The notes under the pieces were generated by a model. The model was given only the letters and a program-made list of their open reading frames with translations. It ran no database searches and was not told the origin of the DNA. A stretch of DNA of 64,000 nt from Ascidiella aspersa (Eukaryota): contig OZ004608.1 in assembly GCA_963924565.1 (NCBI GenBank), positions 13,888,001 through 13,952,000 of the forward strand, read 5' to 3'. Numbering within the stretch: position 1 is the first letter of the stretch; each line of letters opens with the position of its first letter. The position numbers and the translations under genes were made by a program. Below are positions 64 to 45,200 of the stretch, one piece after another.

Positions 64-214
64 CCTTGTCCCCAATGGTCGCCCTGGTCCGTCTGGACAG
101 ACTGTGACGTCACGTGCGACGGTGGTCTCCAGACCAGAAGTAGGACCTGTCTGTACGGCGACAACTGTGACGGCCTCCCATTCGATACGCGACCCTGCGC
201 AACCAACGACTGTC
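64..214 (+). CDS. Exon 1 of window: TSR ([29 protein letters not shown]...CATNDC), phase 0-1
   Basis: ctacag acceptor at 62-63, gtgagt donor at 215. Confidence 0.88.
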
Positions 215-21200: not shown

Positions 21201-24200
21201 AATAACGACCGCTTATACTTGCTGTTGCCGTTTTCGCAGTCTTGTCCGTACTGGAACAACTGGAGCGTGTGGAGCGAATGTTCAAGGACTTGCGGCGGCG
21301 GGGAAAGGTCCCACGTGAGAACTTGCAACAACGGCGAGCCCGGGGACGCCGGGTGCAGGGGAAGCACCTTCCAGCAGGACCGCTGCAGCGTTGAGGTGAG
21401 TTGAAGTGAAGTTGACAATGCAAAACGTTAGTCACCTCGTTTTTATTTTCGGAAAGCTGTCGGTTATTTTTTGTATTAAAATTAAGATGGTGTAAGTAGA
21501 GTTGAAAAGTGGAATGGTGTTGTTCGCATCGTGCTGACACTTGCTGTCTGTTGTGAGAAATTTACTAATTTCGGCAGATACAACTTCGCTATATGATAGC
21601 CATGTCGCTACGTCATTACTAAACTCTAAGTGTGGAAAAAAGCATCCAAACCATTTACAGCAAGGTGTTTCCGCCTTCCAATGTTAAGATTAAAAGCCAA
21701 ATACGAAGTTTTTGTTCTTTATGATAACTGTTTTGGGGAGACCAAGAGCATTTGGGAGATCTAGAGCAAATGTGTAGAAAGTTGTCTGACCTTATTAAGA
21801 TTTTATAGGTTTCATTCAATTCCTTGTTATTCGGTCAAAATTAGCAATGTCTTGTTGCAATTACGTTTGTGACTGAGCCAATTTAGCTATTTCGTATTTT
21901 ATTTGTCTCTGATTGCCGATCATTAATAAGGCCATCCTTTTCTACAGGACTGTCCTATGTTCTCGGACTGGGGCGAGTGGTCGTCGTGTACGGCTACGTG
22001 CGGTGTTGGCGTCCGTTCTCACGTGCGTACTTGCTTGTACGGAGTGTTCGGACAGGAAGGCTGCGACGGAGGCGAACTGATCGAACGCAACGAATGCTTT
22101 GCTGGCGTAAGTTCCGAATATTAGAAAGCTATACAATAGGGAAACTGTACACATTAACTAAAGACGATACAAGCTCGTATCGCAACGTCTTAATAATCAA
22201 GATGATGGCGATCTACTCGACCTTTTTGGCTTTACAATTTATTATCAAACTTTATACAATAGGGTTGTTAAAAAAACACTTTTTTTGTCGAATTTCAGCG
22301 GGGAACCCCTGGAATTGTTAGGTTGCGTCTAAGTCTAAAAAAAAAGTTAAAAATTTTTCAAGTGGAGAATAATTTTTTTCATTCGAAAAATGTAACCTCA
22401 ATTAAATTGATGTAGATCGTTAAAACTGAACTAAACGTGCCCAGATTTGGTTTGTGGGATTTTGAGACGTAGCCTAAAAATTTCACGGGGTACATACTAA
22501 AATTCGAAAAAATGCGTATTTTGGACAATCCTACTATACATTCACTGAACTCGCATCAAAAATGACGTACAAAAATTGGAAACTAAAAATAATTTTTAAG
22601 TTTTAAGTAAGATACTGATGATGCTTTCATAGAAGTAGATATATTTATATTCTTAGCAAACTAACTTTCTATTTCTAAGATATAACTTCATGACTTTGTG
22701 CAAATATATAGAATTGTTTATTTTCGCCATTCACAATTAGGCTTCAAAATAAAATAATTCAAGTCAATTTAATGACCATGTTCGTTAGAAGATGTTAGAA
22801 ATTATATTTGTTTATATAGATTTATGTTAAAGGTAATTGCAACGTAATTAAACGATGTAAATGCTTACTAGTTCGGCCAATCGTTTTCTCAAAATTCCCA
22901 GAATTTTTATTTAGAAATTACAATATTTACATCAAATTATGTAAAAGTTGATTGCAACCTGTTTAAAAGACGTAAAAGCAAAACTATTCGGCCATCAATT
23001 TTCCGAAAATTCCCAGAAACGCCTGGAATTACATATCAAGTTCAGCCATTGTTTTATTTAAGTGCTTAGACATTTCGGTCTAAACTCAACTTACTTACAA
23101 TTAATTCTGCTAAAATTGATTTGCGATTTTTTTAAAGCGACTTTAAGTCATTTCATCCATGCGTCATTCTACTAAAAAATACCCAACGTCCAACAACTTG
23201 GTTTTACAGTCTTGTCCTTCCTGGTCGTCATGGAACTCGTGGGGAGATTGCAGCTTGTCGTGTGGAGGCGGAATCCAATCCCACTCCCGCGTTTGTCTCA
23301 TAGATGGCGCCGAGGCAGGGGGGTGTCCCGGAACATCGGTCGCTTACCAGACCTGCAACTCGCCGGTAAGTTGATAGTGGCGTAAGGGTACTCCGTATAA
23401 ATTTTGTGCAGTTTAGCTTTTCTTGTAACCATGTCTTTTTATTAAATTATTTTTACTTTATAACACAACTTATGACACAACAGCGTTTTTAAAAACAAGA
23501 TTTTTCGGTGTAAGTTTGGTATAAGTTTTCGACCCTAATTTTGATCATGTTCTATTTTTGGTGGGCTTTCGTGGGTTTAACTATTCATCGCATCAAGTTG
23601 TTGGTACTTATGAAGTGCGTGTTGCTTTTTAATGTTTATTTGATTTGAATACGCTTAACTATGTCTTTTCTGACTTCGGCATTGTATCTGCTTCTTATGG
23701 ATTGTGTCTGTTCAATAAATCGAACGGCTACTACTGGATTTCATTTAATTATTTCTTAAGATGACAACTACCGCCAAAGCACTGTTTTGTTAAACCGGTT
23801 CAGTACACCCCATGGGGTACGCGGACTAGTTTTAGGAGGTACATGAAGTCCTATTTGAGTTTAAAAAGTGGAACAAATCTTATAAAATAAATAGCTTAAA
23901 AAATACACTTCGGCACTTTTTTAAACAACAAATTCAGTTTTACATTTTTTTTCTAATTTATCGATAATATCAAAAGACACAAAATCCAACTTTGCTTCAA
24001 AAAATCTAACGCTCCTCTCTTTGGTGACCCTCATCAGGCTTGCGTCTTCTGGAGCACGTGGAATCCGTGGAGAAGATGCAGTTTGACCTGTGGAGGTGGA
24101 AACAGACTCCGGACTCGCATGTGCTTCAACGGAGAACCGGGAGATGAGGGATGTTCGGGAGCACAGGCCGAGAACGAGTCCTGCAACGACCAGGTGGGAA

Positions 24201-27200
24201 CCGAGAGAAACAATCGATAAGAGTTTCGAGAACGTAATCCGAGCCCTGTGTTTTTTTATTCATGGCGTGAATTAAACCTATAGCAATCGTTAAAGAAATA
24301 AAAATATTGGACAAAGGAAAGATCTGCTGAGGGGTTATTTTACCGAAGGCCCTTGTATGGCCACTTGTTTTATAAAAAGTTATATATATGGCTATGCCTT
24401 GATTTCTTTGAAGCTAACTCTTTTAAGCACTATGACATGTTATTTAGATGCTCTATTGCCGTTGATGTACGGATACGGATACCGTTTATTGACGAGTGCG
24501 TCTTTTTTCCAGGATTGTCCATCTTGGGCGGTCTGGGGTGAATGGGCAGCTTGTAGTTCCACCTGCGGAGGAGGACGTACGTTCCGGTTCCGGAAGTGCT
24601 CTAACGGAGCTTACGGATCACCCGGATGCGAGGGATCCTATCGGGAAGCTCAGGACTGCAACTTGGAGGTTCGTCCTAAATTATAAGCCTTCCTTAGATT
24701 ATAGGTATCTATTTCTGCTACTCTCTTACTCCGACATTGCGTTGGCCTACGTAAATTATGTGATTTTCCAAAAGTCTTTAGTGAAATTAAAATCAAAATT
24801 TATCATGATCTTAGCTGGATCACTTTAAATTTTATTCAGTCTAAACCTTAACCCGATCTGCTTTTGTACGATTTATGTAAACGGACTTATAATGAAAGGC
24901 TAGAACACAACGACTAAAATAAACGAAAAAAGAAAAACTGCACTCAAAAAAACAAGTTTTATTCCATACCCTAAAAACAGGACTTATTCTTTTCCCAAAT
25001 TGAAAAAAATGTGTAAGTCAGGTGGCACTGCTAAAAAAAGCAAAATACTGTTAAATTACGGTGTACAAAAGATTGGATATTATCATAATTTGTATTTTTT
25101 CATTGCAATGTTACGACTGACGTGTCTCAATGCTTTACTAACCTTTGTCTGTCTGTCAAACGATGATATGCTGTCCTTCGCAGTTAACAAGTGCATTGTC
25201 ATGTATCGAGAGGTTCCATATCTCGCATTTTGTACCGCAATTTTATTGCGCAGTAGAAATAGTTGCTTTAAAGGGCAATGCTCGCAGTAACCAAGCGTAA
25301 GCATAGCAATGCAACGGCATAGCAACCTAGAACGGGGTCGATAAATCATTTTCCACCTGAATTGCAACAGTTATCCTGTGGTCTTGGCAGCTGTTACATT
25401 TACCATATTGTCTCCAGCCTTGCCCGACTTGGACCACCTGGAGTGAGCTGTCAGATTGCTCCGTGACTTGCGGAAGAGGAACACGTTCCCGCTCCCGATC
25501 CTGCTCCGGATCCGGATGCGGCGCGAGGTCTCTCGACACCAGCACGATCTCCTGCATCCGTGGGGTAAGGAGCTATCTCTTGGAAACCAGTCGGTTTTCC
25601 CGTAAAATTGTTCTTGTATTTGTATGATCGTTGTTTAAAGTCCTTTCTGCTCTGTAGTAGACATAATACAAAATAGAATTAAACAATTAAACATACATGT
25701 TGTGCATTGTACAGCAACATGTAGTTTAAAGCAGTGATTCTGAACTCCCACGATTAAATGCTGCTTTCAATTCACTCAAATGCAAACTGTATGACCGTAA
25801 TATCCCAATTATAACTAAGGATATTTCATCTTATTGGTAGATACATTCTACAAGATCTAGTTTAGATACATTTATTGGATACAAAACCTCCTCAATGTCT
25901 ACAGTTACGAGGATGCGAAAATCCTAAAAAATAGAAACATCAAATTATGCAAAAATAATTCCTTCATTCAACCCTATCTGTTCGTAAACCCTTCTAACAG
26001 TTTAAGAAAACATTGGTTTACATTTTTTTTCTAACAGTTTAAGAAACATTGGTTTACATCGTACGACTCTGGTAACAGCAAAAATGCCGCTTGTATAACT
26101 TTTAAAGAGTTGACTATATTTAAAGAAAAAAACAAACCTTTTAAATGGAAAAAATAAACAATCCAATCGCAGTTGGTTTATGTTTGCGTTTCCCTCTTTC
26201 GCAGGAGTGCGCCTACTGGACCGACTGGAGTCCGTGGGGCTCGTGCAGTCACAGCTGCGGGGACGTCGGTAGGCACACCAGACTCAGGCAGTGCATTGGT
26301 GGAAGCCCTGGAGATGTTGGATGCTCAGGATTGCCGATCGACCAAGACTCTTGCGGCGGACAGGTAAGGAATCGCATATAAAACGATACTGCTTCCAAAA
26401 GTTATAAAAAATAGAAATTGGGCATTAGCTTCTTTTTTTGAAGCATAACCCCACCATATGATTTTGTGGCATAAATAGGGTACTTTGCGCTTCGGAGTTG
26501 CTTTATTCTCACGGTTGAAAGGAAGTTTGTCATCATGTGCCAAACCTAGCGTACATCACATCTTGCTCTGTCACTAAATCTCTTATAGTTTTACCGAAGT
26601 ATATATGTATTGATCAATGTGTATGGTATAACTTTACTAAGGCGAACGCAATGTGAATTCAATAATTTTCTATACCAATTTTTAAAAGGCTTTTTTAATA
26701 ACTTTGGTATACACCAGCCGTTCACAGGTTTTAACTCATTGTGTATGAGTAACAACCTAACCGATACCTTTTCTCTTTTGATACCCTTGACTGTATAGCA
26801 ATCAAATGTTTTGGCTATTATCGTAGTGTAAGATCGGCGTAAGCACACACACCATCGTCATGCAATGCGTTTATATCTAGCGCCGATTGGATGATCTACT
26901 TTAGGTATTAATTGGATACAAAAACCTCCTCAATGTCTCCCCCTTATCCGTTCTTTTAGATTTGTCCAAGCTGGTCAGATTGGAGCGCTTGGTCGGACTG
27001 CAACCGCGACTGCGGCGGTGGACTGATGACGCACACTCGCGAGTGCAACAACGGAAATCCGGGTCAGCAGGGATGCACCGGGCCCTACGTCGAACAGAGG
27101 TTCTGCAACGGAAACGTAAGTTAAAAAAAAATATTCCGGTATACCTTTGCACAAATATTTCCTTTCTTTTTAGTTTAGGAAAAAATGAAATTAAAGAATT

Positions 27201-30200
27201 TCCATTTTAGCTGCGTGTTTTGTAAAACTGTTTTCGTTTCATAAAGTTGGCGACACGCTGCACTCTTTTAAGCTATTTAAAAATATTTAAGAAAAAATAT
27301 CTACCCTGTTTGAAAAAATATCATTTTAAATATCTACCCTGTTTGCAGAACGTTATTAAACCTACTATTCTGCGGTTTTATATATTCAATAATAAAACTA
27401 TTTGAACACAGTACACCCCAAAAAATTGTGCTTTAAAGCCTTGTTTAATTATTATCAACAAACTTACGAGACAATATAGCTATTGGCGGTTTTGCCTTTA
27501 ACTAAAACATATTAAACTGTCGTGCTGTACTGAGCCTTACCTTTTTACTTCAGGCTTGTCCTTTCTGGAGCATGTGGGGATTCTGGAGTTCTTGCTCGGC
27601 GCGATGCGACTCGGGACTCAGGTCCAGGAGGAGAACTTGCGTCAACGTTGGAGAAGGACTGAACTGCGGACTGGAAGACTCCGTTCAGTCGGGTGTCTGC
27701 AACACTGAGGTAAGATGCCGTTCTCTATTTTTTTTTTCTTCTCTTTTCGGTCGGAGACGGTTATTTTTTTATCGGTCGGGTACAGTGCATGGTGGCTTAA
27801 TTATTTGCGACTTTGTCGAAAAGACGTGTGTGGAGGTTTTTCGTTTATGGAGACAACTAGTGGCTTAATTATTTGCGACTTCAGGGGGCAAAGTCTTTAG
27901 GGGGCACAAGAATAACTTAAAGTAAAGGATTTTTTTCAAAATCGTGAGCAAACAGGGAACGACTCTTAAGCAAGGGGCAATGGCTATCATTTTTTATGAT
28001 TTTCGGATTAAAAAATTAGAAAAACACGGTTTTAGTGGCCAACATTACCAACCCAACATATTTATATCTTAAGCAACTGATCGTGTAATATCGCTCTCGT
28101 ATAGTATTATGGATTTAAACGTTTTGCCATCGCTGTTTTGGAACATGCAATATTAATATTATATTAAATTTGACGAATGTACAATGTGAAAACAGAAGAA
28201 TGCTGACAAGTTGCCAGTGACCTTTATTGCCCAAACATATTTTTAACCTCCAAAATAACTCAATCATTGAACTTTAAATGTTAATAAACAGCTCAAAAAT
28301 CATCTGGACAACAATTAGGACACCTTACAGATGCGATGGTTTGAATGAGATGGCCGTTAAACTCTGTCTTATGCAAAAAAAAAATGGTACATTTAAAGAA
28401 GATATATATACTGTTACAATCGACGCACGTAATTTTATTAAAGATGCTATAGTTCACAACATGTTTGTGTCGGTTGAATTGTTATTTCGGATTTTGTTTA
28501 TTCTGGGTCTTTTACTGGGTGGTCATCCTCAAGTCGGTAAACTCTCCGATTTTGGTAAGTTACTAAACTGTTTCTATAGGCAGCCAGTTCACTGTAGTTT
28601 GATTTGCAGGCCTGCCCGACCTGGACCGAGTGGTCTGTGTGGAGCGATTGCGACAAGCTGTGCGACGGTGGTCAGCGGACGAGATCTCGCACTTGCCAGA
28701 ACAGCGGAGACGGATTCTTCCTCGACTGTGGCGGTCCGTCTGACGAGTCGGTTGTCTGCAACGCAAGGGTAAGTGCTTCTGAGTTCCATTTTCTTCATTA
28801 AAAATAACGGTTGTCGTGAAATTTCTAAAATTTTGAACTTGAACTTGAGATTTATCTCGAAATTTAAGGGTAAGCACTCCTTCGTTCTATTTTGTTTATT
28901 TAAAAAAATATCGGTTGTCGTGAAATTTCTAAAATATTAAACTTGAACTTGAACTTTATCTCGAAATTTAAGGGCAAGTGCTTCTGAGTTCCATTTTCTT
29001 CATTAAAATTAACGGTTGTCGTGAAATTTCTAAAATTTTGAACTTGAACTTGAGATTTATCTCGAAATTTAAGGGCAAGCGCTTCTGAGTTCCATTTTGT
29101 TTATAGAAAAAATATCGGTTGTCGTGAAATTCGTAAAATATTGAACTTGAACTTGAGCTTTATCTGGAAATTTAGGGTTAAATAGTGTTTAAACTTAATT
29201 TGGGCAAAGCGTTCGCCATTGTGCTAACTACACCCTCTAAACAAAATGATCACGAGGTTAATGAAAGGCATTATCGAAAAGCTTTTATATATATATGCAT
29301 ATAAATATACTATATATATATATTAAATTTAATATACAATTGCGCTATGTATTGTTTAGATACTTGAAATTGTTAATAAAAGCAAGACATATTGAACTTA
29401 AACTTTACCATAAGTTTTATAGGCTCAATAACATGTGGTTATTAGAAATAACATTATACCCCATATTGTACTAACTGACCAACAGGACTTTAATGTAAAA
29501 TATTTTCCGGTTTTCTATACTTTAATCGAACGGTAATTTAGAGAGTGTCAAGATGCATTTTTGTAGCTTGTATGGCTAAGCCTGGTTAAAAAAAGAGAGA
29601 CATAATTAAATTTAAACTTTTTGCAGTAACTCTTTCTGCCATAAGTTCAATTTAAAAGTTTTGATATTTGAACTTGAGCTTCAACTTGAACTTGGCGATT
29701 TTTACAGCAAAGTTCTTTAAATAGCGAGCAGGTGAAATAAACTGCAGACAATTAATCGTCACGCCACAGCACTTTCTTTCATTTTATTCCTAAATACCGA
29801 AAGGCTACCTGCAGTGGGTTAATTCGACTTTCTGCCCGCACTTGATCCCAAAGTGGCAAACAACACAACTCACGTTGTCCGTGTACTAACGCAGGCGTGT
29901 GCTTCCTGGATGAGCTGGCAGTCTTGGTCCTCGTGCAGCATCTCGTGCGGCCGAGGATCGCGATCCAGAGGCAGGGTTTGTTCCACCAGCACCGATGATG
30001 ACGTATTTGGTACCTGTCCTGGTGATGACGAAATGGTGGAGGACTGCGTCGTAGGGGTAAGCGATAATTCTGTTTTGTTATTTTAGTTAGTTATTACCAA
30101 TGCTCAAGACGTGATTGCTTGGGAATGATAGTGTCCACAGTGGTAAAGTTGATTGTTTGTTTTCACACTTCTTGGTGACCTATATATTTATTTAATTGGG

Positions 30201-33200
30201 AAACGCATATTTTGTTTTAACCTGCTATAGTTTTAGTGTTTTTTGTTCACTCAAGTTCCTAAAGTTAAGAAATACAGAACTCTTTAAAATATTTTTGCCA
30301 ACTTTATTCAAACAACACATTATTTTTCGCTTTGCGCTGATATTTCGCGTCTTTTCAATTTTTTGTTTTATTATGTTTTGCTGTTTCTTTGACGGATTAA
30401 AGCTACATGGTAGCTACGTATCATTTAAACCTATAAAAATACACAACTTAAGTTTAACGTAAATTTGTTTGTGGTTCGCCCAAGTTGTTTTCCCTTCAGG
30501 GATTTATATTAGAATATTTAAGAAGCTAATATATAGTTAATGTCGTGTGGCTTTGGAGCTTTTCGCGGCAATATGTTACTTTGCGTTGTTTTGCCGTCCC
30601 ATTCAATTTGTTTGTACAGCCAACAAAACTATAACTTTCTCGTCTACTACAGGAATGTGCCTTCTACACCGACTGGACCGAATGGAGCAGTTGCAGTCAG
30701 AGCTGTAATGGCGGAAGGCAAAGTAGAAAGCGGAACTGTATGTACGGCTCCGCAGAGATCGACTGCCTGGGACCCAGTGACCTGTCAAGAGAGTGCAATG
30801 TAGACGTAAGTGGGGAACTTGCTTAACAATTGATTGTTGTACTAATTTTGTGTTCTACGTTAGGACAGTTGGTCTTAACTTGTGGCTGGTTAAAATGATA
30901 ATTTTCACAAAGCTATGATAGGCTATTTGAACGCCGAACAGTCACAAGTAACTATTTGAACAATCTATTATTGCTTATCCAATTATTAATTCCAGATCAT
31001 AGCTTTATACTTTCTATGTTGCTTATTCAAAAATTGATTCCAAACCATCACTTTAGATTTTCTAAAAAGTGGTAACTAGTATCGATTAAGTTAGTCCTTG
31101 CATGAACACCGAAAAACACCGAAAATACTTAAGAACCACTATGCATGGTCCCAATTCAACAACATGCACGGCACGTTTATACCAGTTGTCTTGAGTTTCG
31201 AATTTTTCGGTTTGTTACCAACAAATGAACGCAAACCATTTTCAGGCCTGTCCCATATGGAGCATCTGGAGCGATTGGAGCGCGTGTAATGCTACATGCG
31301 GTGGCGGGGTTCGGTCCCACACCAGGGTTTGCATCAACGGAGATCGAAACCAGCAGGGATGCACCGGGCCTGACAGGGAGGAGGAATACTGTAACGGACA
31401 GGTACGATTTGCCTTGCGAATTGGACGCCATTTCTGTTTTCCGTTCTATGCGCAGGGCAAGAACGCGTTTTTTTACAGTTTATCTTATCTTTGACCATTC
31501 TTTTGCTGATGGCTTCTTTTCTGTTACAAATTTCTCATTTACAATACAAGTAATCAACGTCGCGTTTGTTCTCATTATTAGGAAATCATAAATAAATAGT
31601 GCTGCAAACTTATTTTATTTGTAAAATTACTAAAATAATATCACAATGGCTGTTACTCTATAACGGATATGCATATCATATATTGAAGAAACTTGTTCAT
31701 AATTGTCCTATTTTGTTTGTGTTAAGGTAAATTGATATATGTACATATCTGCTTAAAAAATCAATAAGAAACTCTTAAACTATTTCCGAAATTCCACATT
31801 TATGTTTAAAAAATCGAGATAAAATATTTAACATACTCGAACAATCGTTAAAATCCTTACCATCATTCTTTCAACCGGCAGGCGTGTCCTTACTTGTCGC
31901 GCTGGAGTTCATGGGGAGCTTGCGGAGTGACTTGCGGAGGAGGATCGAGGATGCGAGCTCGCATCTGTGTCAACAGTGATCCAACCGGCGGAGGATGCTC
32001 TGGAGATCTGGCCGAGGACGAGTTCTGCAACGCACAGGTGGGAAGACAGACTTTTCGCACATCTCAACACCTAACCTAACCGACCTCACTAAGCCACAAA
32101 TAAGATACGTGTGATAAATAGCGCTTCTGAAATCATGATAACCAACGGCAACACTATACGCCAGGGTTTCTTAAACTGGGGTCCATGGACGCTCCACGGT
32201 ATTTCCAAGGAAAAGTGTTGTATTAAAATTGAAAAAAATGTATATTTAGATTCCATTGCGCTTTAACATTTTTCCAAAAGGAAACAGCAGATTTTTGAAG
32301 TCTATTTGCATTGTGACATATACTTACGACGTCATCTCTAAAATTTCTTGCCTATACTGGTCCACGCGAAGCGAAAATATTTTTAGGGGTGCGGAAACAA
32401 ATGTTTAGCAACTCCTGCTATTCGCCTATTATACTGCTAATATTTTACCGATTGCCCCCTGAATTGATTTATCATAGTCGTCGATTAGTGAGGCACTGTC
32501 GTACAAGCAAGGCAAGGATAGAATATTGTAGCTTGAAATCAGTTTCGAATTTAAAACGAATAAAATTGACTTCGGTATGAATATCAATAGTTGTGTGTTT
32601 CATTAGGATCTGTAAAGCCACAAAAAACAACCAGGCCGCGTCACAAGGCCCCTACAAAATATTCCTTTTTTCGAAACCATAACACGTCGTAAATCTTCCT
32701 TAGAACTGCCCGCGCTACGACGAATGGGGCTCGTGGTCGGCTTGCAGCGCCTCGTGCGGATCTGACGGCGTGTCGCGTCGCACCAGAACTTGTCGCTTCG
32801 GCTTCTTCGGAATGGTCGGCTGCACAGCATCGCCTGAAGAGAGCAGGGCTTGTAACTCGCAGGTGAGTGCGGCTTTCAGTCGCCCGTTAAAGTTTCAAGA
32901 AAGGTCTCGGCGGCGTTGCCGTTTGTTTTTTTTGTTTAACGAAAATCCTATACCCGATAGGCGGATAGATTACATTTTATGGTCATAATAAACTTATTTA
33001 TGAAATCGAAATGATTGGATGTATTGAGCTCTCGCAGTTTTTGCGCACGGTATTAACGTGTCCACTTGTAAAGTTGGGTTTTTGAATCAATATTTTACCA
33101 AGTCTGCAACATTTTTATCCTTTTGTGTAACAAATTATATAGAATTAAAAGGATCCTTGTAAAAATAATTTTTGCATACCATTGCTACCTTTCTCTGTTT

Positions 33201-36200
33201 CCTAAAGTTAAACATGCTGTTTATGTTAAAGGCCTACTACTTCCAGCGCTAATTTTGTTTGAAAGATAAAACATGTTTTCAAAAAGCAATAACTATAGCT
33301 ATTTACACACAAAAAAGCCATATTCTATATCACACTTAATTTGGTATTAAATAATGTCACACGCTTGCTCGGACTGCTAGAAGCTTTTATTGACCATGAA
33401 AATCCTGTCCAGGTCTGTCCGTCATTCCGCGAATGGTCGGAGTGGTCCGACTGCAGCGTGTCATGCGGCCAGGGCGTGCGCGAAAGGTCACGAACCTGTC
33501 AGAACGGTGACGTCGGCCAGAGAGGCTGCCTCGGCATCACGACAGACACAGACGTTTGCGTCAGAGGGGTGAGAAAAAGAAACTACACTTTTCTACTTTT
33601 AGTTTTCTGTATCCGTTTGTTGAAATTATTGATGCGGTGCTTGACACTAGCTTGACCAAGTAACAGGTGTGCGGATTACCACTAATTAAAAACTTTTCCC
33701 ACTGTATAAAGCCACGCTAAGATTAATGATTCGTTAAATTGTGTTCACTAAACGTTTAATCTTTTGCGAAATATCTACGATACGCTATAAACAATACAAA
33801 TGAAAAGACAAGTCATTCATCCCTATAAAGGACTTAAAACAGTTGTTTTGCTTGAATAGCTTCCATAAAAAGCGTTATAATGAGAAATACTTTAAGCTAT
33901 ATATTCACATTCTTTAAACTAAAATAAACATTTGACGAAACCAAACTACCTAATTTGCAATAAGGTACAAGTGTGATCGTACAACGCGATTTCACAGAGC
34001 AACTTAAAACAATAAAATACATTAATTAAATACAATCCAATTGCGTTTCAGCAATGCGCCTACTGGACGTTCTGGTCGGCCTGGAGCAGCTGTAACGCAA
34101 CCTGTGGTGTTGCTGGCAGATCCAGACAGAGAAACTGTATTAATGGAGCACAGGGAGACGTCGGTTGCCGGGGCGATCAATTTGAGCAGTCCTTCTGTCC
34201 GATTGAGGTAAGCTTGAACTTGTTGTGAACGGGTAGTATGTATCTGTATAAATAGGTGTTATTTGATCTTCTATACGTCCGACCAAATTTCTAGAAATCC
34301 TTCAAAGATACAGATTACAAAATAATCCACGGGAGTTTGCTGGTTAGTATAATTAATCTACCTAAATCACGAAACATAACACATTTTGCCCAATAATTTA
34401 ACATAATCTACACAGTAGGTGCCAGTTCCAAGCCCAGTGCGTAAAACAGTAAGCTGGTGCTATATGACGTTGAATATTATTATTTTACCCAAACAAACCG
34501 CGTTTTCAATTCATCCTTTATTTAGCCGTGTCCCTTCTGGGCCACATGGTCAGAGTACGTCTTTTTTAATTTTGGAAATCTTTCAAAGATACAGATTGCA
34601 AAATAAACCATAGGAGTTTGGTGGTCAGTATAAGTATTATACCTTAATCAAGAAACCTTACTGTATAAACTGTACACATTTTGCCAATAAATTGAACACA
34701 ATCTGCACAATAAGTACCGGTTCAAAGTAAAACGTTAAACACTAAGCTTATGCGTATTTACGTTGATTATTTTACCCAAACAAACTGTTTTTTTAACTTA
34801 TTCTGTATTCAGCCATGCCCCTTCTGGACCACGTGGTCAGGCTTCAGCGCCTGCAGCGAATTGTGCGGCGGCGGGGTCAGGTCAAGGTCACGCGCATGCG
34901 TGAACGGAGGCTCTGACGGCGGCGGTTGCTACGGTCCCAGCAGCGAAGAAATTTTCTGCAACGGAAACGTAAGGAAAAAAAATCGTTTTTGCTAAGTAGA
35001 AGGTGGGCGATCCCTGACTTGTACATGCGTTTCTTAATACTTTTGTAATTTGGACTTGTAAAGTCCCTTTTTTGTCAAAACTTATTGTATAAGGATGATG
35101 TTAAATATTTCTGAAAAGAGTAATTATAGGCTTTTCGTAGAAACTCTTTGGTCTGATCCCGGTTTGCCTTTTAAGCCATATTTACACCGTTTGGTGGCGC
35201 TAGTAAGCAATTTATGCGAATTTTAAGATCCAACAAGTAAACGAGAATACCTTTATTTGGATTTTTTTTGGGGGGGAGTTGTTTCAAACTTTGCCGAAAA
35301 AAGAGTTTATATAAAGTAGCAGTTGCAAATGAATGAATAAAAATACATCGAATGGGACTCATAAAGTCAAATCATGTCTTAAAATACGCGCGTTTTTTAG
35401 CCTTGTGCCTACTGGTCAACGTGGGGATCATGGGGAGGTTGCACAGCGCGTTGCGGAGGTGGAATAAGAATCCACTCCAGGACGTGCGTGAACGGAAACG
35501 GAGCGGTCACTTGCGAAGGCGACGAGGAAGGGTCGGAGCCTTGCGCTACAACGGTAAGTGGATATGATGGATTTGATAAAGTTTTGCCCCTAGCAAGTTG
35601 GTATACGGAGATCGGTATTAATAAAAGCTACGACTTTAAAATCCCCCATAGCTGCATTGTATTGAAACCCTGTAAGCCGGGCCGTAAAAGAGTATACTGC
35701 TCTCGTGTTAACTGAATCATGTTACACACACGTGAGAAACGTTACTATAGACGGCAAACTAAATGGTTATAAAATATCTCGCTCCGGCCTTGCAATTAAG
35801 TTACAACCATAATATAAGATCATTAAACATTTGTCTAACTGTCATTTGGTTCTTCTTACGTTGCTCTGGCCAACGATATTGAAACACGTTTTTAAGGTAC
35901 CGAAAGCATTGATGCTATTAAATTTACAAACTTTAAAAAATTGAAACGTTGAAAGGTATTTTCCAGGCTCGAAGGTTAAGCTTTTCTTGACCTCTAAAAA
36001 GTGTTTTTTTTTTTGAGAAATTTACGTTTCAAAGTAAAAAGAACTGCGTTGGGTCGCAGACCATAGCTGGCGTGTCTATGACACTTTGTCAAGGTATTTA
36101 AACTCCAGATTTAACGTTCGTGTTTATTTTAGTTTTCCAACTCCAAAATGTCGAATTTAGCATTGCAACAATTAGACAACTTTTGTGTTTCAGGCATGCC

Positions 36201-39200
36201 CGTCGTGGGCGGTCTGGCAAGACTGGGGTGCGTGCAGCGCCACATGCGGCGGAGGAACGAGTCGCCGAATGCGATCTTGCACCACGTTCGGCTCGGGACT
36301 CTTCTGCACCGGATCCAAAGACGAATACAGGGACTGCAATTCAGAGGTAAGCGGGTCTGACCTTTCTGCGATTTTAATGTGAGACACGATGTGAAATATT
36401 GTTGTTGATATAGTTTAAATAATTTATAACTTCATATACTATGACAGGGTTGCGACATTTTGTTTTAGTTTATTTGCTGGATTGCACATACATACATAAT
36501 ATAGTATGTAAGCTTCATCTGAGAAAACAAACATTATATCAATCTAGGCTTAAACCGTTATAATGTGTTTCAGAAGACATTAAACTATACAAACATATTT
36601 AACATTAACAATAATATTCCTACTTTGTTCGGGTACATGCTGTTTTATAACGTAAAATTACTAATAGTTATATCACCTCCAACAGAACACATAATGCCGA
36701 CGATAAAAGTTTTAAAATTTTATAAAAGCGTGAGAAGCACATCACTTCGAACAAAAATCAGTCAGCAAGGTGTAAAGTTTTTAATACAAATATGCATTTC
36801 GCCATATAAAGGGTGCTATCAGTTTATCTGTACAAATAAATAGTAAAAAATAATAAAATGTAAAATAATAAAAAAATAAAAAAACATCCAAGACTCACAT
36901 GGACAAAGACAGGCTGGCAAGCTGCGTTTAACGCCAACCACTAAAAATCAACTTTCTATGGTTCTTTCAATAGGTTTTCCTAACTGCAATTTAATTTTTA
37001 CGCAGAACTGTCCCAGCTGGAGCGATTGGAACAACTGGTCGGAATGCAGTCAGTCGTGTGGCCGGGGAACAAGGTCTAGGCTGAGGGATTGTGTTGACGG
37101 GCTGATCGGACCTGACGGATGCGAAGGACCGGCCCAGATGTCCAGCTCCTGCATAAGAGGGGTACGAAAAGAAGCGCACTTTGTTTTCTTTTTCTCTTCG
37201 GAGTTGTGTGATGTTCATTAAATATCGCGTAATAAGATTAGTTACAGCAATTTAGACTTTTAAAGTGACAGTGACATAAAAAATAGGTTTAAACAGCTTT
37301 TCTGTTTTCGTAAAAATATATTTTCTTTGTTTCTTAATTTTGAACTAAAGCTAGTTTTATTTTGGAAATGTTCAAGATTGTAAACACTTATCAACGCAAT
37401 TTTAAGGTCGTTAAGGGGTCGAAAATTTTAGAGTTGACCTCAATAATATAATTTAACAATTACAAGAAAAACTTTCAAAAACATCATTGCCAGTCTTATT
37501 CTTTCGGGTCAAAGATCTATAGGCGTTTCGTAGGTTTGTAGTAAAACATAAAGCTATGTTATTCTTCAGTTCTGCCCGTACTTCGACGACTGGACAAGCT
37601 GGAGTCGTTGCTCGGTGAGCTGTGGCCGCGGAATAACTTCGCGATCCCGAGTCTGCATTAACCAGGGACCTTTCCTGCAATGCTCCGGAGACACTGACTT
37701 AGTGACTCTTTGTAACCCTCAGGTAAACAAGGGACATTAAGTTGTTATATTTTACAAGATTCGGAAAGCCCACTATCCAAAATCTTGTAAAGCATCTATT
37801 AGCCCTGTTTTCTTAAAGCCGGTCTTGCATCTAATTTTTTGTTTTTTTCTGCAAATATTTGTTCAGCATTTCAGCAAAATTATTCAGAGCAGAAAATATC
37901 AGCCGAAGTATAAGTTTGTGTCCTTAATTTTGCACCCAAGCGTAATTTAAATTGCTCTAAATTTTAATTTCAAACCAAGCTACGTCAAGCAAAACTATGA
38001 GAATTTACTGGTAATAGCATACATGAAACATAAATACATGTATAATAATGTATATATTCTTTCTTGCATTTACAGATATAAATGTCATCAATAAACGAAA
38101 TGTAAAAAATCTCTTATGTTTTTTTGTGTCCTTGGCTGATACTATACATAAGGGATTTTATTGAACACTGTTTTCGTGGTTATTGTTGTGTTCGTTAAAT
38201 TCAAGCCAATCAACTCTAATTCTTTTGTGCAGTCGTGTCCATCGTGGACGGAGTGGGACGAGTGGAGCACTTGCACAGTTCGATGTGGCGGCGGAATTCG
38301 CCAGCGTCGTCGAACCTGCGCCAACGGCTTCCCAGGTGTGATCGGATGCGGTGGCGACACTTACCAGGACGACTTCTGCAACTCTCACGTAAGTTAATTA
38401 GGAAAGTTATAGTCAACATCTGATATACTGTAAAAGCGTTTTTAACCAAGATATATTTATTTGGGCATTGTATCAACCAACATTAAAGCGGTAGTTTGGT
38501 TGGTATTACCATATGTTGAAACCCCCGTAATATGGACTAAAATTAAAAATATATGGTAGCTTTTAAAAGAGCTCACACATTTTTCCTTGCGCGCCATCTC
38601 TGTATATATCCCTTGTTAGATGCTACACTCAAAATACAACAAAAAATAAAATAAAAAACTTTGAAATCAGCTCGAGAAGTGCACAACTTTAACCCAAAAT
38701 CAGTCAGCCTAGCGTTAAAAGAGCATAAAGTTTTGACACATTGCTGACTAATTTTTGTTCAAAGACTGCTCTCCCAAAGTTATTAATTCTAGGACTTTTA
38801 TCGTCCTTTAAAAAAATTATTGCTGAATTTGTTGGAGCATCACAGCAACCAATTGTCTTTAAAAAAACGTGTTTGCCATTAAAACAATTTGAAGCTTCAT
38901 GGTTGGAGGTTGTAGGAAGATGTAAAAAGGATATCAAAGCCCATACGGAAGTATAAGTAGCATTTTAAACTTTTCGAATATCTCTTTATTTATTTTCAAC
39001 ATCCCTGGTAATTAAAATGTTTTGTAACTCACTGCATTTCTTCAGCAATGTCCGACCTGGTCGGGCTGGGGCAGTTGGTCGACGTGTTCTTTTACGTGCG
39101 GCGGTGGGGTGAAGACTCGCAGCAGGCAATGCACCAACGACGATCTCAGCGAGTGCGAAGGATCGTCAGTGATGAGCCGCTTCTGCAACCAGATGGTGCG

Positions 39201-42200
39201 TTTTTACGTCTTATTTAAAGCAAACCATATACATGTTTAAAATTCATGCGTATTTACGTCCTATTTGAAACACTATACATATTTAAAAGCTTGTTTAAAT
39301 TAAAATTTGTGTTTTTAGTTAATACATACAATTTTATTTTCATTTTAAACTCTCCGCCTGTATTTTCGATTTCGTTTTATATGTGTAATAGCTCGAGTTA
39401 TTGCAAAAACTTTAAAAATATAAAAAAGTGTAGATTTTATCATTGATTTCTAATTTGGTTTTTGAATATTGAATTCAATATGAGTTTCTAATTAATTGTC
39501 TAAAAACTACTATATAACCTATGCACTTTTCACTCTTTTGCGATATTACCAGTGTTTTTTTTTTAAAGAATAAGCAACAGCATTTAACACATACAATTAC
39601 AAGGTATATTTTTTAAGACAAAAGCCAACATTATGTAAAAATTTCCAACAACAAAACTGTTAACTTTACTTCCCCTTAATTGTATTTTGTTTGCCCTATA
39701 CTTTTATGTCATGCTTGAAATCACTCACCATACGACTTTTTGATGACCAATTAACAGGAATGTCCGTTCTGGGACGAATGGGGCGACTGGACGCCATGTA
39801 GCTCACCGTGCGGTGGCGGAAATCGTCGCAGGGACAGAACTTGTCAGAACGGTTACGCGGGCGACGCCGGCTGCGACGGTTCCGACACGGAGCAGGCATC
39901 TTGCAATGGAAGGGTGAGGCGTCGATTTGTTAAAGTTTACTCAGTGTTGTAAACAAGTCATTTTAAAAAGACTTAAGTCCCAGTCAAGTCATTTCAAAAA
40001 TAACAAGTCAAGTCCCAGTCCAAGTTATCGGTTGCCCAAGTCAAGTCCCAGTCAAGTCATTATGAGACCAAGTCAATTTCAAGTCATGTTATTGGCATAA
40101 AAGTAAACTGTTAAACTATTAAAATCGGTAAACTCGTCCGATTACAAGCAACAATGTAACTAAAAAAATAACACAAACGCTTTATACAGCAATAAATTGT
40201 TTAATGTGCAAAACTTAAGATAAATTATAATGAAAAACACTTAATTGAATCCCAAGTTATCTGTCGTAAAGACTAAAGTCAAGTCATTTGTTCAAAAGGC
40301 TTAAGTCAAGTCAAGTCATTTTGGTCAAAGGACTTAAGTCAAGTTAAGTCATTTGAAAACAGTGACTTTAGTGCACTAAGTCAAGTCAATGACTTAAGTC
40401 ATTGCAACACTGAGTTTACTTTCGAGAAGTTCGAAGGATGTAAGCTTGCACTTTGGCTTGATGTGGTGCACCGGATCCACAAGCAGGATAGCTTAGTTTG
40501 ACGAATAAACCCTTTTGCTGTAAGATCAGCTGAGTCGATAACCTCACGTTCACCGTTAACAATACCCTCGCACAACTATATATGAAATCTTGAAACGAAA
40601 ATTAATATAAAACGGCAAAGTTGTGGAAAAACAAGTTTTTTTTCGAATTGGTAAAATAGCAACTGCTATAGTTTCCAAGTAAAAAGAGGTCAGATGAATC
40701 GTAAAGACTTCGCCATTTTCGTAGCTTTCGTTTTATTTTAAGTATTATAGCCAAAACAGGCCAACTGTTCTTGAGTGGCTGCTAACATCGCGCCGTTTTA
40801 TAATAGGTTCATAGACTTGAGATAGGCTCTTATGTAAGTCACACAACGACTAAAACGACAAAGAAACACAGTCGTTAGCTGGCGGTTTGCTAAACATTAT
40901 TCAGGAGCAAGTAATACTAATATCAGTGTTTTCCAAGCTTATATTAACAAGTAAAATTTACAGTTAAAAAGATAAGGAAAAACAGGATCAAACTTTTTTT
41001 TTAAAAGGAAAATATATTTCGCCACGTGGCATCGTCAGTTCCTGTAAGAGTATAAATAAATAAATAAAATCACAGCGCAGCCATCAACAAACCGATATAT
41101 TGAAAACAAAACGTCTAATCCTGTTTTTTTACTTATGGTTTTAACTATGAGTTTTACTTATTAATATACGCGTCAGCGGAGCAGTGATCGACTGGATAAA
41201 ACCGGCCGCGAAGTTTTGGGATTCTATAAAGATACACACTAGAGCTTATATTATTTTCCTTTGATCTCGTTAAAAAACTAATTAAACACTCTGTCGACAG
41301 TCAATTGTCATTGTTACTTTTTTGCCCGCAGCTTTGCACCTACTGGAGCGAGTGGCAGAACTGGTCGGATTGCAGTATCACGTGCGGTAGAGGAGCCAGA
41401 AGAAGGGAGCGATCTTGCGTGAACGAGGTCGTCGATCTCTTCACATGCCCCGGGGCCGGCTCACAAACCGAGGACTGCATCAGAGGAGTAAGTCGAGTTT
41501 TGCGTTTTTGAATGGCGGCGGGACTGCATTGTACACTGTCGTCTCTGGTGTTCTGTCTTGGAAGGCTAAAAGCGTTGTTTACCCTTGTTAAAAATTTCTT
41601 AGCTGCATTTTACATTGGCAACATGTACTCCATTAAGACCTTCTCAACGGAATTTTACGGGGTTAATACAATTCCACATTAAATATTAATACTACCTTTG
41701 CAATATAAAAATAGATACTAGATTACGTTTGACAGGCTACAAGATGGACCAACAGGGCTAGAATGTTTCTTAAAATTATATAAACAAAATATTTATAAGT
41801 TATTTAAGTAAATGCATTTTCCAAATGAGGCTTGAATATATTCCAGTCACACTAATTAATGATGAAAGAAAAGGTCGAGTAGATCAACATCATCTTGATT
41901 AAGACGTTTCGATACGAGCTTGTATCATCTTAAAAATGTGACTGACAAGTAAATTTAAGCATCAGTTATAAAAAGCGGGACTCAATTGCTATCATTCGTA
42001 CGAGCTCGTATCGAAACCTATTACTTTTTTTGGCTTTGCAATTCATTACCAAGCTACATTACAGATCCGTGCGTAGTGTACGCAACTAAAATTTTCCCGT
42101 TTTGCAGAGCTGCCCATTCTGGAACAATTGGAGCCAGTGGGGCGATTGTTCCTTGACTTGCGGTGGAGGAACACAGGGCAGGAGTAGAAATTGCGTTGGA

Positions 42201-45200
42201 GGACAAGCCGGAGATGATGGATGCGAGGGACTAATAAGAGACACCAGGAGATGTTCGCTTGAGGTAGGTTTTCTCTTTTTTTAATTTTATTCATTGTTTA
42301 GCCGCAAGTAGCCTATCTCTCACTAATGCACGGTTAAATAATATCTGTTTTGAAATATGTTCTGCTGTGTTTTGTTCTAAACCTATTTTACAGTTTTTTC
42401 TTTCATAAAAATTTATTGGGCCACGGAATTTTTTTGCAACGAAAATGGGCCACAAAAGAAAAAAAGGGTTGAGAACCACTGCATTAGAACGAGCAAAACA
42501 AACAGTTGGTAAAGTCTTGTCGTTTATTGTTTTTTGATTCGTATCCTTATTCTGCGTGAATCTCATATCAGTATGTTATCCTGCGTCGAGTTATTTTATC
42601 CCATATCATGTGGGCGTGATGCAATTCAAAGCCTGCGAGTAACTTTCGAATAAATCAGTATTTTCATGGAGTTGTGCGCCGCATGATAGCCGCACATTCA
42701 TTGCACTTTATTTTAAAAGTTAGCGTGGTAGAGAAATTTAAAATTAGCTCAGCTTAGAAAGGCCCACGTACCAAATGTGGTCCTGAGAGCTTGTCAAACT
42801 ATATGTAAACGAAGAATTTTTCGCGCCTTGCGCGTAAATTTTTGTTTTATAGTATGTTTCACATTACGGTATGGCCGTGTTTTAGGCATCAAGGCGCTGT
42901 GTAATATTTCACCTTAAAATCAAATATCCTTAATCCGCCACTGTTTTCGTAGTGGTTTTACGTAGTTGACTTTCAATAGCTATGAAAAGAGTGCTTTGGG
43001 CCGCGACAAAAAAATCTGGCCGAACACTGGCGTAAGATAAAAATTGAGCAATGTTTTCCTCCAGCTGTGTCCATCGTGGTCCTCCTGGGGCAACTGGACG
43101 GAGTGCTCGGCTCCTTGTGGAGGAGGAATCAGATCCCACATCCGCGTCTGCAACAACGGAAGACCCAACGACTACGGATGCCAGGGTCCTGTCAGAGCCC
43201 AGGAATTCTGCAACGGACAGGTAAGACAGTATACCGAGAAACGAATAAATGCACACTCAATGTGAGTGTTATTTTACAGTATGCTTTTTGAGAGAAACGC
43301 GCTGTAAAAACATTGATTTATTTGTCTCGAAATATTTTACAACGTGAGAAAAATGTACAGGCGACAAAACTTGTTCGTCGAATTATGTATTCTTACTTAT
43401 GTATTGTTTAATGAATAGAACGTTGAATTTTATTCCGTGAGATTAATAGAACAACTGGTAAACTAAAGGGAAGTCGCCTCACTATATTATAAAACCTTTA
43501 GACTATAGTGGTTCAAACTAAATACATTGATGAAAAAAGTAAATCAACAGTGTATACAGATGCAAAACTAACAAATATATGCGCAATCTACTGTTGGTTT
43601 TCAGTTCAACCAGCAGTCACTACCATTGTTTCGTAACCCGCTATCATAAATAAAATAGTGTGCATAAACCGCGCGTTTGGTGCGTTAAAGTTAACATTTT
43701 AGTGTCCAACTGATGGTCAATTGCTCGGAGATTTTTCATCTAATACAGATAAGACAAAAAGCCCCTGTACAATACAGGCACACTTTTAGGCGTTTCTTTT
43801 ACCGTATATATATACGCTTGCGTACTCGCAAAATTTCAAAAATCCTGCACGTTCGTTTTTTCACGCAGGCCTGTCCCTTCTTTGGCAACTGGAACCTCTG
43901 GAGCGCCTGCTCGAGATCTTGCGGCAGCGGAACCACGACCCGGACCCGGCTGTGCGTCAACGGCGTCGAGGGAGAAACGGGATGTTTGGGATCCACCAGT
44001 GTTAGCGCTGTGTGCAACGATAGGGTAAGACGCCGCAATATCTTTATATAGTCATTTTACTGACTTGAATCGGGAATTGGCGAACATTATTCAAGAAAGT
44101 ATTACCATGTTTTGTCGTGTAAAACGAGAATAAACACAGGCCACTGGTTCACATGTTACTGGCGACGCGTCGAACATTGCTTAGTTTAACGTCGCCCTAT
44201 ACTTTTGAATTGTATGCCATCGGGAGGTTTAGTATAGGGTTGGCATGTCAGAAAAAACAAGGGAAATCTTAATATGAAGAAAGTAAACAATATAGGTTAA
44301 TCATACATTAAAAGCTGAGAAACGAGAATCTTTAGAAATATCGAGAATCCATAGAAAAATATAAGCCCGTATAGAAATAGCAAGTAGGCCTAGGTAGCAT
44401 TAGCTATGTGTACATTTAGAGTTAGTGTTGAGACGAGCGAGCAATATTTTGTTGAATAACGGGGTTTTATATTTTTAGTATGGTAGAATAGCAAAACAGA
44501 TAAAATAAGATTTTGGGTAATGCCAATTTGATCTGAACAGAAATGGGTAATAAGGGAAAAAAAGGTTAAGAAACCCTGCTCTAGAGAGTCCATAGCCGAT
44601 AGTGTTTGGCTAGCGAAAAACATACAAAAAAACTTATTTAGGACCATATAGCTGGCAATCTTGGACCACTCTGGTGTAGAACTTTACTAAAAAATAAATT
44701 TCTAAATCCATTTTTTTTCGCAGGCATGTCCGCAGTGGCAGCAGTGGGACGAGTGGTCTTCGTGCAGTCGGTTGTGCGGAGGAGGATTCCAGTCCCGATA
44801 CCGCTCCTGCTCCAACGGACGTCCGGGACACCCCGGATGCGACGGAAGCGACTTTGAGGAGATTCGCTGTAACGAGCAGGTTCGCCCGATCATTTTATTG
44901 CTGCCTTCTTCTTTTGTGTGTGATGCGCAGTTCTTTGTTATTAGAGAGAGGCGTTTTGTGTGTATGTTCGATTTTATTTCAGCGTTTACGTTTTTTGACC
45001 CTCAGTTACAAGAGACAGGGCTTTTTTGTTTGTCTCGTAAAACTCTGTTTGATCGCATTATAATGAACATCGTAGCCTGATGTTGACGCTCTATTTCCGT
45101 ACAGCCCTTTTATATATTTTATTTAAGGAAATAAATGCTCCTAATTCGAAACCAAGGATCGTATCCTTTTTGATTTTTTGTCTATCGTAAAATTAAGATG

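Follow-up and report, generated by a model that had tools for sequence, protein, structure and literature searches.

A five-exon super-repeat in a giant thrombospondin type-1 repeat array common to the ascidians Ascidiella aspersa and Ciona intestinalis

Six-frame translation of a 64,000-nucleotide stretch of the Ascidiella aspersa genome (contig OZ004608.1, positions 13,888,001 to 13,952,000; G000:C2:13888001-13952000 in our coordinates, hereafter the window) revealed one plus-strand gene with short exons that spans the whole window and carries a long array of exons, each encoding one thrombospondin type-1 repeat (TSR). We report that the exons of this array recur with a period of five and that the period is real and common to Ciona. 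The period is probably explained by ancient duplications of a five-exon block combined with position-specific constraint, readable through a few residues at the predicted joint between the first two domains of the unit (A and B). The gene would encode a giant, previously undescribed ascidian protein whose TSR array ranks among the longest in our searches and whose titin-like super-repeat has kept its order since the split from Ciona.

The window holds 78 array exons, one more than the 77 of an original prediction made from the letters alone, and exon numbers used here are one higher than in that prediction. Exon lengths range from 141 to 174 bases, and the borders are AG..GT with a single GC donor. 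A further 41 exons of the same type lie in the flanking stretches downstream of the window, where the array ends at G000:C2:13983346; the full array thus comprises 119 TSR exons and 6,159 amino acids. GC donors are apparent at two array exons, exon 55 (window 47203-47358) and exon 99 (6250-6405 of flanking stretch L006). Each exon begins with x-C6 of the preceding domain and continues as W..W..W-C1-C2-R.R-C3-C4-C5, and the linkers between TSRs are very short (C-x-x-W). The C, W, and R columns are invariant in 40 aligned exons, all 119 exons encode 6 to 7 cysteines, exon 48 scores 42.5 bits against Pfam TSP_1 (cut-off, 21.6), and the best PDB sequence matches are properdin and thrombospondin-1.

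The original prediction had proposed, from motifs in exons 28 to 52, that the array hides a super-repeat of five exons. All 15 motifs that it quoted were present at the positions given. The first exon of each of the five units carries CGRG or CGQG and ends in C-[IV]-x-G (Table 1); the exons following those five start with ECAYW, ECAFY, QCAYW, FCPYF, and SCPFW; and the third exons of the units end with FCNGN, YCNGQ, FCNGN, FCNSH, and FCNGQ. Lag statistics were calculated from a normalized BLOSUM score with 10,000 permutations (window set) and correction for 20 lags. As anticipated, a similarity peak above permutation background was present at lag 5, and a second one at lag 10. In the 78 window exons, lag 5 gave z = 2.9 (P = 0.002; corrected, 0.040) and lag 10 gave z = 3.2 (corrected, 0.014); with plain identity, the lag 5 and lag 10 peaks of this set failed correction (0.19 and 0.13). 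In all 119 exons, z was 4.2 at lag 5 (corrected P = 0.0012) and 3.6 at lag 10 (corrected, 0.0086). The held-out exons 53-119 gave z = 3.6 at lag 5 (corrected, 0.0043), and the held-out exons 79-119 alone were below significance (z = 2.7; 0.067).

Exons 28-52 matched exons 79-119 in a single register, with a shift of +1 (z = 4.9; P = 1e-4 corrected for 5 phases), and matched exons 64-78 at an offset of +1 (z = 4.0; P = 2e-4). No matching register was found between exons 28-52 and exons 1-13, 14-27, 53-63, or 100-119. The period runs from exon 28 to about exon 100, so that the range first noticed corresponds to the first 5 of ~15 units; lag tests detected no period in exons 1-27 and 100-119. Chance, or a range chosen post hoc, was ruled out as the source of the period by the held-out exons together with Ciona. 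Recent duplication or an assembly artefact was ruled out as well: exon identity is only 26-62%, and the introns of different units have no similarity left except for dispersed repeats.

Is the same period found in other ascidians? A profile of 40 exons was searched against 1.84 billion representative proteins. The top hit, at 2,401 bits far above the rest, belongs to Ciona intestinalis; its cluster includes XP_026691406.1 (LOC100179634 isoform X6, "uncharacterized protein," 7,564 amino acids). Ciona LOC100179634 is the orthologue of this gene. It has the same lectin-EGF-TSR-VWA-TSR order, and its post-VWA repeats are colinear with exons 1-101 without a gap (101 of 101). Identity between orthologous repeats averages 53%; shifting the pairing by 1, 2, or 5 lowers it to 41-43%. 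Reciprocal best hits make up 52 of the 101 pairs. Taken alone, the Ciona repeats gave z values of 3.9, 4.0, and 3.6 at lags 5, 10, and 15, and the register slip of exons 53-63 described below is common to both species. The Ciona protein differs in that its model stops at repeat 101, without the last 18 TSRs and the sushi-VWA-VWA end, and in that it has four near-identical Pro/Thr-linked TSRs early in the protein. On the basis of the one-to-one colinearity, the array is old, its number and order are unchanged, and it was complete before the lineages split. Orthologue identity is 52% for exons 1-27, 52% for exons 28-52, 53% for exons 53-63, and 55% for exons 64-98; the aperiodic exons thus match the periodic ones in conservation, and a conserved order is no particular mark of the period. 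Among 170 stored proteins, only the Ciona gene reached at least 62% identity in the profile search, and word-index protein searches with the VWA and lectin exons found no orthologue. The best-scoring orthologous pair is exon 6 (window 8183-8356), in which an acidic, Pro-rich insert that replaces the third Trp is conserved in Ciona (WPEPPVDDTPGC); the insert is a candidate binding loop.

We refer to the five positions of the unit as classes A to E. Weak class scores suggest that exons 28-98 consist of thirteen 5-exon and two 3-exon units. A-type exons are found at 28, 33, 38, 43, and 48, then at 64, 69, ... 94, with exon 99 weaker. In between, exons 53-63 score as A D E, A B ? D E, and A B E (mean of both species), and the A-type exons of this slip (45339, 47856, and 51503) are weakened. 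Exons 64-99 gave z = 5.4 at lag 5, in a range picked after viewing the data. The class signal remains when class A is left out (z = 8.9) and when classes A and C are left out (z = 5.4). In a tree of the 60 periodic exons, the classes clustered overall, in agreement with the original prediction: the tree required 21 label changes, compared to a shuffled mean of 37.0, and none of 200 shuffles was as low. By class, there were 2 changes for A, 6 for C, 8 for E, and 10 each for B and D.

Table 1. Coordinates of the features of the gene within the window
Feature	Position	Strand	Evidence or remark
Exons 1-27, TSR exons without detectable period, one-to-one with Ciona	5204..24668	+	
Periodic block 1, exons 28-52, five ABCDE units	25418..44879	+	Lag 5 z 3.2, lag 10 z 3.9; Ciona orthologues, lag 5 z 5.9
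Register slip, 11 exons (53-63), parsed 3+5+3	45339..52753	+	Two-species class scores; parse inferred
Periodic block 2, first three units, exons 64-78	53201..63946	+	Extends past the window to exon 98-100
Class A exon 28 (CGRG ... CIRG)	25418..25564	+	
Class A exon 33 (CGRG ... CVVG)	29895..30056	+	
Class A exon 38 (CGQG ... CVRG)	33413..33568	+	
Class A exon 43 (CGRG ... CIRG)	37006..37161	+	
Class A exon 48 (CGRG ... CIRG)	41332..41487	+	
Class A exon 64 (CGRG ... CVEG)	53201..53356	+	Absent from the original prediction
Class A exon 69 (CGRG ... CIRG)	56993..57148	+	Absent from the original prediction
Class A exon 74 (CGRG ... CIEG)	61117..61272	+	Absent from the original prediction
78 symmetric phase-0 exons, one TSR each	5204..63946	+	Lengths all multiples of 3; Pfam TSP_1 on exon 48
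VWA domain, three exons, directly upstream of the array	2961..4276	+	Pfam VWA E 2e-17 on 3517-3768; outer ends by eye
Final TSR exons of the upstream TSR stretch, mixed intron positions	64..2236	+	

Three of the classes carry residues of their own. Class A is marked by R/Q two residues after C2 and by I/V/L/T-x-G after C5, class B by F/Y two residues after C6, at the domain start, and class C by F/Y before C5. In each species, I/V/L/T follows C5 in 11 of 12 class A exons and in 0 of 48 others. Asn at this site is absent from class A (0/12 in each species; 0/24 sequences pooled) versus 37/48 and 41/48 of the others in the two species (78/96 pooled). The R/Q loop is found in 11/12 class A exons versus 3/48 and 1/48 others, the F/Y start in 12/12 class B exons versus 15/48 and 17/48, and F/Y before C5 in 10/12 and 9/12 class C exons versus 4/48 and 1/48. 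More than half of the class excess (54%) comes from five of the 43 variable columns, and the signal-bearing columns appear to lie mostly around the predicted A-to-B domain joint. The disulfides of TSP-1 are C1-C5, C2-C6, and C3-C4. With this pattern, each exon boundary would fall between C5 and C6, and the loop Arg and C5-[IV]-x-G tail of class A, together with the aromatic residue at the start of class B, would cluster about a single C2-C6 bond at the A-B joint, where just two residues lie between C6 and the first Trp of the next domain. An AlphaFold model of a 594-amino-acid Ciona fragment (P0028; 32-row alignment) had a predicted local distance difference test (pLDDT) score of 67.7 and a predicted template modeling (pTM) score of 0.28 and was uninformative on joints.

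These class marks bear on a reading in which the period is a pure relic: generic TSR constraints would act alike on every repeat, and the period would be no more than inherited similarity that has yet to decay. The excess is indeed small and spread weakly over many columns, the retention of columns within classes correlates with their retention in orthologues (Spearman 0.45, P = 0.002), covariation at the joint is absent outside the duplicated region, and a crude test also marks 18 of 65 other TSR-rich proteins as periodic. To set the data against such a homogeneous model, we simulated equal constraints on all repeats along a star tree with the F81 substitution model per column. The mean excess was fitted when the units were about twice as old as the species split in this crude model, and at that age the five-column share was 41% (95th percentile, 50%), so that the observed 54% is more concentrated than the model yields; older simulated ages gave more concentration with too little signal. 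In addition, class A lacks the consensus Asn in 24 of 24 sequences even though half of the orthologous class A pairs (6/12) differ at this C5+1 site. We consider a pure relic quite improbable. If it were nonetheless correct, the array would represent ordinary multi-domain repeat expansion.

Several observations weigh against the explanation that we favor, block duplication with position-specific constraint. The comparison covers two species, and the Ciona model ends at repeat 101. The excess is small, with 44.4% identity within classes versus 41.3% between them; leave-one-out assignment placed 44 of 60 exons in the correct class, classes D and E were inseparable (P = 0.10), classes B and D were unclustered on the tree, no better than shuffled, and only 2 of its 57 branches were well supported. 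The simulation is crude, and the observed excess over it is slight. The geometry of the A-B joint is a structure-free prediction from the disulfide pattern. Moreover, the pairing of an A-type tail with a following aromatic start holds inside exons 28-100 and not outside, where an aromatic start followed an A-type tail in 2/10 cases versus 8/34 (Ciona, 2/7 versus 4/19; P = 1.0). A general rule that an A-type tail calls for an aromatic start was ruled out by this absence, and the pairing may therefore be inherited. Speaking for our explanation instead, exon 53, the sole A-position exon without an aromatic start after it, has lost its tail Gly in both species, and exons 56 and 61 keep the tail Gly; the exon 53 contrast is a single case.

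Could the period itself be under selection, as the original prediction had also proposed for fiber packing or ligand spacing? A unit of five domains (259 amino acids, perhaps 20-25 nm from known TSR lengths) would then act as a ruler, either holding binding patches at a set distance (the F/Y before C5 in class C is one example) or fixing how molecules pack side by side in a fiber or net, by analogy with the titin C-zone super-repeat on the thick filament. About 13 units are in register and unchanged between two species, and the class marks persist despite substitutions. Fast single-exon amplification is possible in this family, as revealed by 11 copies, 65-98% identical, in a tail-to-tail paralogue, which makes the frozen array notable. 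However, the register slips at exons 53-63 in both species, 46 of the 119 exons, at the array ends, are aperiodic while exons 1-27 are equally conserved in order and identity, and no periodic charge difference separates the classes (means, -0.5 to -1.9). A frozen repeat order is also the norm for protein tandem repeats, in which the number of units and their sequence along the protein as a rule persist for long periods (PMC3995336). Our data lend modest support to selection on class-specific residues; selection on the five-domain spacing itself goes beyond what they show, given the slip and the equal conservation of exons 1-27. A selected period appears rather unlikely to us. A bolder version, in which the protein is an extracellular "titin," a matrix rod of ~9,000 residues whose five-TSR super-repeat is a selected molecular ruler, is unlikely; if true, a special A-B joint and an exposed aromatic residue every fifth domain would set the mesh or banding of, for example, a feeding net or the tunic. 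With one exon per domain, ~13 replicates per position, and two truncated units, the array is a test bed for telling a duplication relic from a selected ruler, and the class-mark residues are named targets for mutation.

The exons might also be interchangeable cassettes that are alternatively spliced, either Dscam-like or to tune length, with the period incidental. Every exon is phase 0, and under the TSP-1 disulfide pattern a six-cysteine domain would be restored whichever exons were skipped. The name isoform X6 on the Ciona record implies several modeled isoforms somewhere in the locus. That isoform, a predicted model, joins 101 repeats consecutively, and the frozen number and order would be unlike a diversifying cassette array. 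RNA was examined in one raw run, of which 6% was read, with a depth of ~2x on exons. The gene is transcribed: among the repeat-free bins, RNA covered 16 of the 19 that hold an exon and neither of the 2 that lack one, and in all covered exon bins the first mate lay on the minus strand (sense for the usual stranded library). The three exon bins without a read would suit skipped cassettes, but three zeros are expected at this depth. Exon-exon joints were absent from the 15 RNA matches listed, beyond which lay 416 others, dominated by repeats. Taken together, we regard alternative cassettes as highly improbable. In local tandem copies, the donor site of exon 32 recurs several times (window 28765-29177) and the acceptor region of exon 40 once (window 34286-34840), which creates possible cryptic splice sites.

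The lag peaks, the clustering of classes, the absence of intron similarity, and the 101/101 colinearity with Ciona uphold the part of the original prediction that had the array growing by old duplications of a five-exon block. In the sequence of events that we propose, an ABCDE block of TSR exons would have undergone ancient tandem duplications in the gene for a predicted secreted, rod-like matrix protein, presumably by recombination in introns; any exon block keeps the frame because all exons are phase 0. Copying would have been over by the time of the split from Ciona (our crude model dates it to roughly double the age of the split), and two later losses of two exons each would have produced the 3-exon units. 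Selection on a few residues at the predicted A-B joint would keep the period visible. Along a rod of ~0.5 micrometer, every fifth joint would then differ from the others in twist or stiffness, and the lectin and VWA ends of the rod would bind matrix partners.

The domain order is a signal-peptide-like start, C-type lectin, EGF repeats, about two dozen TSRs, VWA, the 119 TSR exons, sushi, and two VWA domains. The hydrophobic N-terminal start resembles a signal peptide by eye, and the predicted product is likely a huge secreted protein. Its length of ~9,000 amino acids is an estimate and not the length of an assembled protein; TSRs total ~145. In the upstream TSRs the intron positions are mixed, unlike the phase-0 array. 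Downstream of the putative signal peptide and ahead of the lectin domain are Cys-rich exons without a Pfam match (1799-3085 of flanking stretch L003).

How does the array compare with known systems? As in a super-repeat, there are peaks at fixed lags (5 and 10; in Ciona 5, 10, and 15) and position-specific residues, here for classes A, B, and C. The titin A-band and nebulin super-repeats are likewise block-duplicated higher-order repeats with conserved positions and linkers, best kept in the middle and decaying toward the ends (PMC10665226 and PMC1553488, in the parts available). In the same excerpts, titin super-repeats conserve particular positions and linkers (PMC10665226), and repeats often expand several domains at once, in the middle (PMC1553488). 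Multi-domain duplication is a known and common route of repeat growth, of which this array is probably a further case. Titin and nebulin differ in that they are intracellular and their Ig/Fn3 or nebulin modules fit a known filament, whereas the array consists of extracellular-type TSRs of one kind, with one exon per domain, a broken register, and no known partner lattice.

Hemicentin is a long Ig array with a G2F domain, and SCO-spondin carries VWD, TIL, and LDLa domains. Hallmarks of either were absent from the 12 exon stretches scanned with Pfam, which cover part of the protein (no VWD/TIL/LDLa, Ig, or protease domains), and from the Ciona sequence by eye. Fragments of the Ciona locus are filed as "Hemicentin-1" (H2Y3E3) and "semaphorin-5B-like" (XP_078487990.1), names that look like automatic labels. 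SCO-spondin, properdin, thrombospondin-1, and ADT-1-like proteins have the same TSR domain as the array, and our protein has far more repeats than TSR-rich secreted proteins (~145, with 57 the next highest among the stored proteins tested). In the crude test of the 65 other stored proteins with at least 20 TSRs, from which six near-duplicate rows were excluded and remaining relatives kept, two of the 18 periodic proteins had lag 5; the Ciona orthologue fails this crude test because of a lag-1 cluster. TSP1 and VWA domains are also paired in byssus and ascidian stolon proteins (PMC12817120) and have been found in marine adhesives and in matrix proteins of Ciona; no protein in the passages of these sources matches this gene (PMC12817120, PMC6109156, and PMC5612238). 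In a limited library, without supplements, we found no paper naming the Ciona accessions, this gene, or a TSR super-repeat; Ciona proteome or expression tables may carry the gene under another identifier.

Other TSR genes of this genome also carry repeated exons or domains. The tail-to-tail paralogue, on the minus strand (L009-L010, G000:C2:13990300-14004206), has the same sushi-VWA-VWA end; its TSR exons match exons 104, 105, and 114-119, the 11 recent copies resemble exon 110, and on its upstream side no TSR or clear start was found. An intronless open frame of 3,380 amino acids on the plus strand (L026-L027, G000:C3:33861000-33872000) has ~50 TSR-like domains in a super-repeat of period 4 with a nested period of 2, with an identity of 0.45 at lag 4 versus 0.28-0.30 at odd lags under imperfect splitting. 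A run of near-identical TSR exons (L022-L023, G000:C1:40371000-40381000), with the same peptide at 40372935 and 40375915, represents recent amplification in another TSR gene. Finally, introns 47-49 of the array (window 39942-40412, 41869-42085, and 42318-43030) contain high-copy dispersed repeats, some with inverted ends, on which the DNA depth of runs X1 and X2 is very high; they are probably small transposons.

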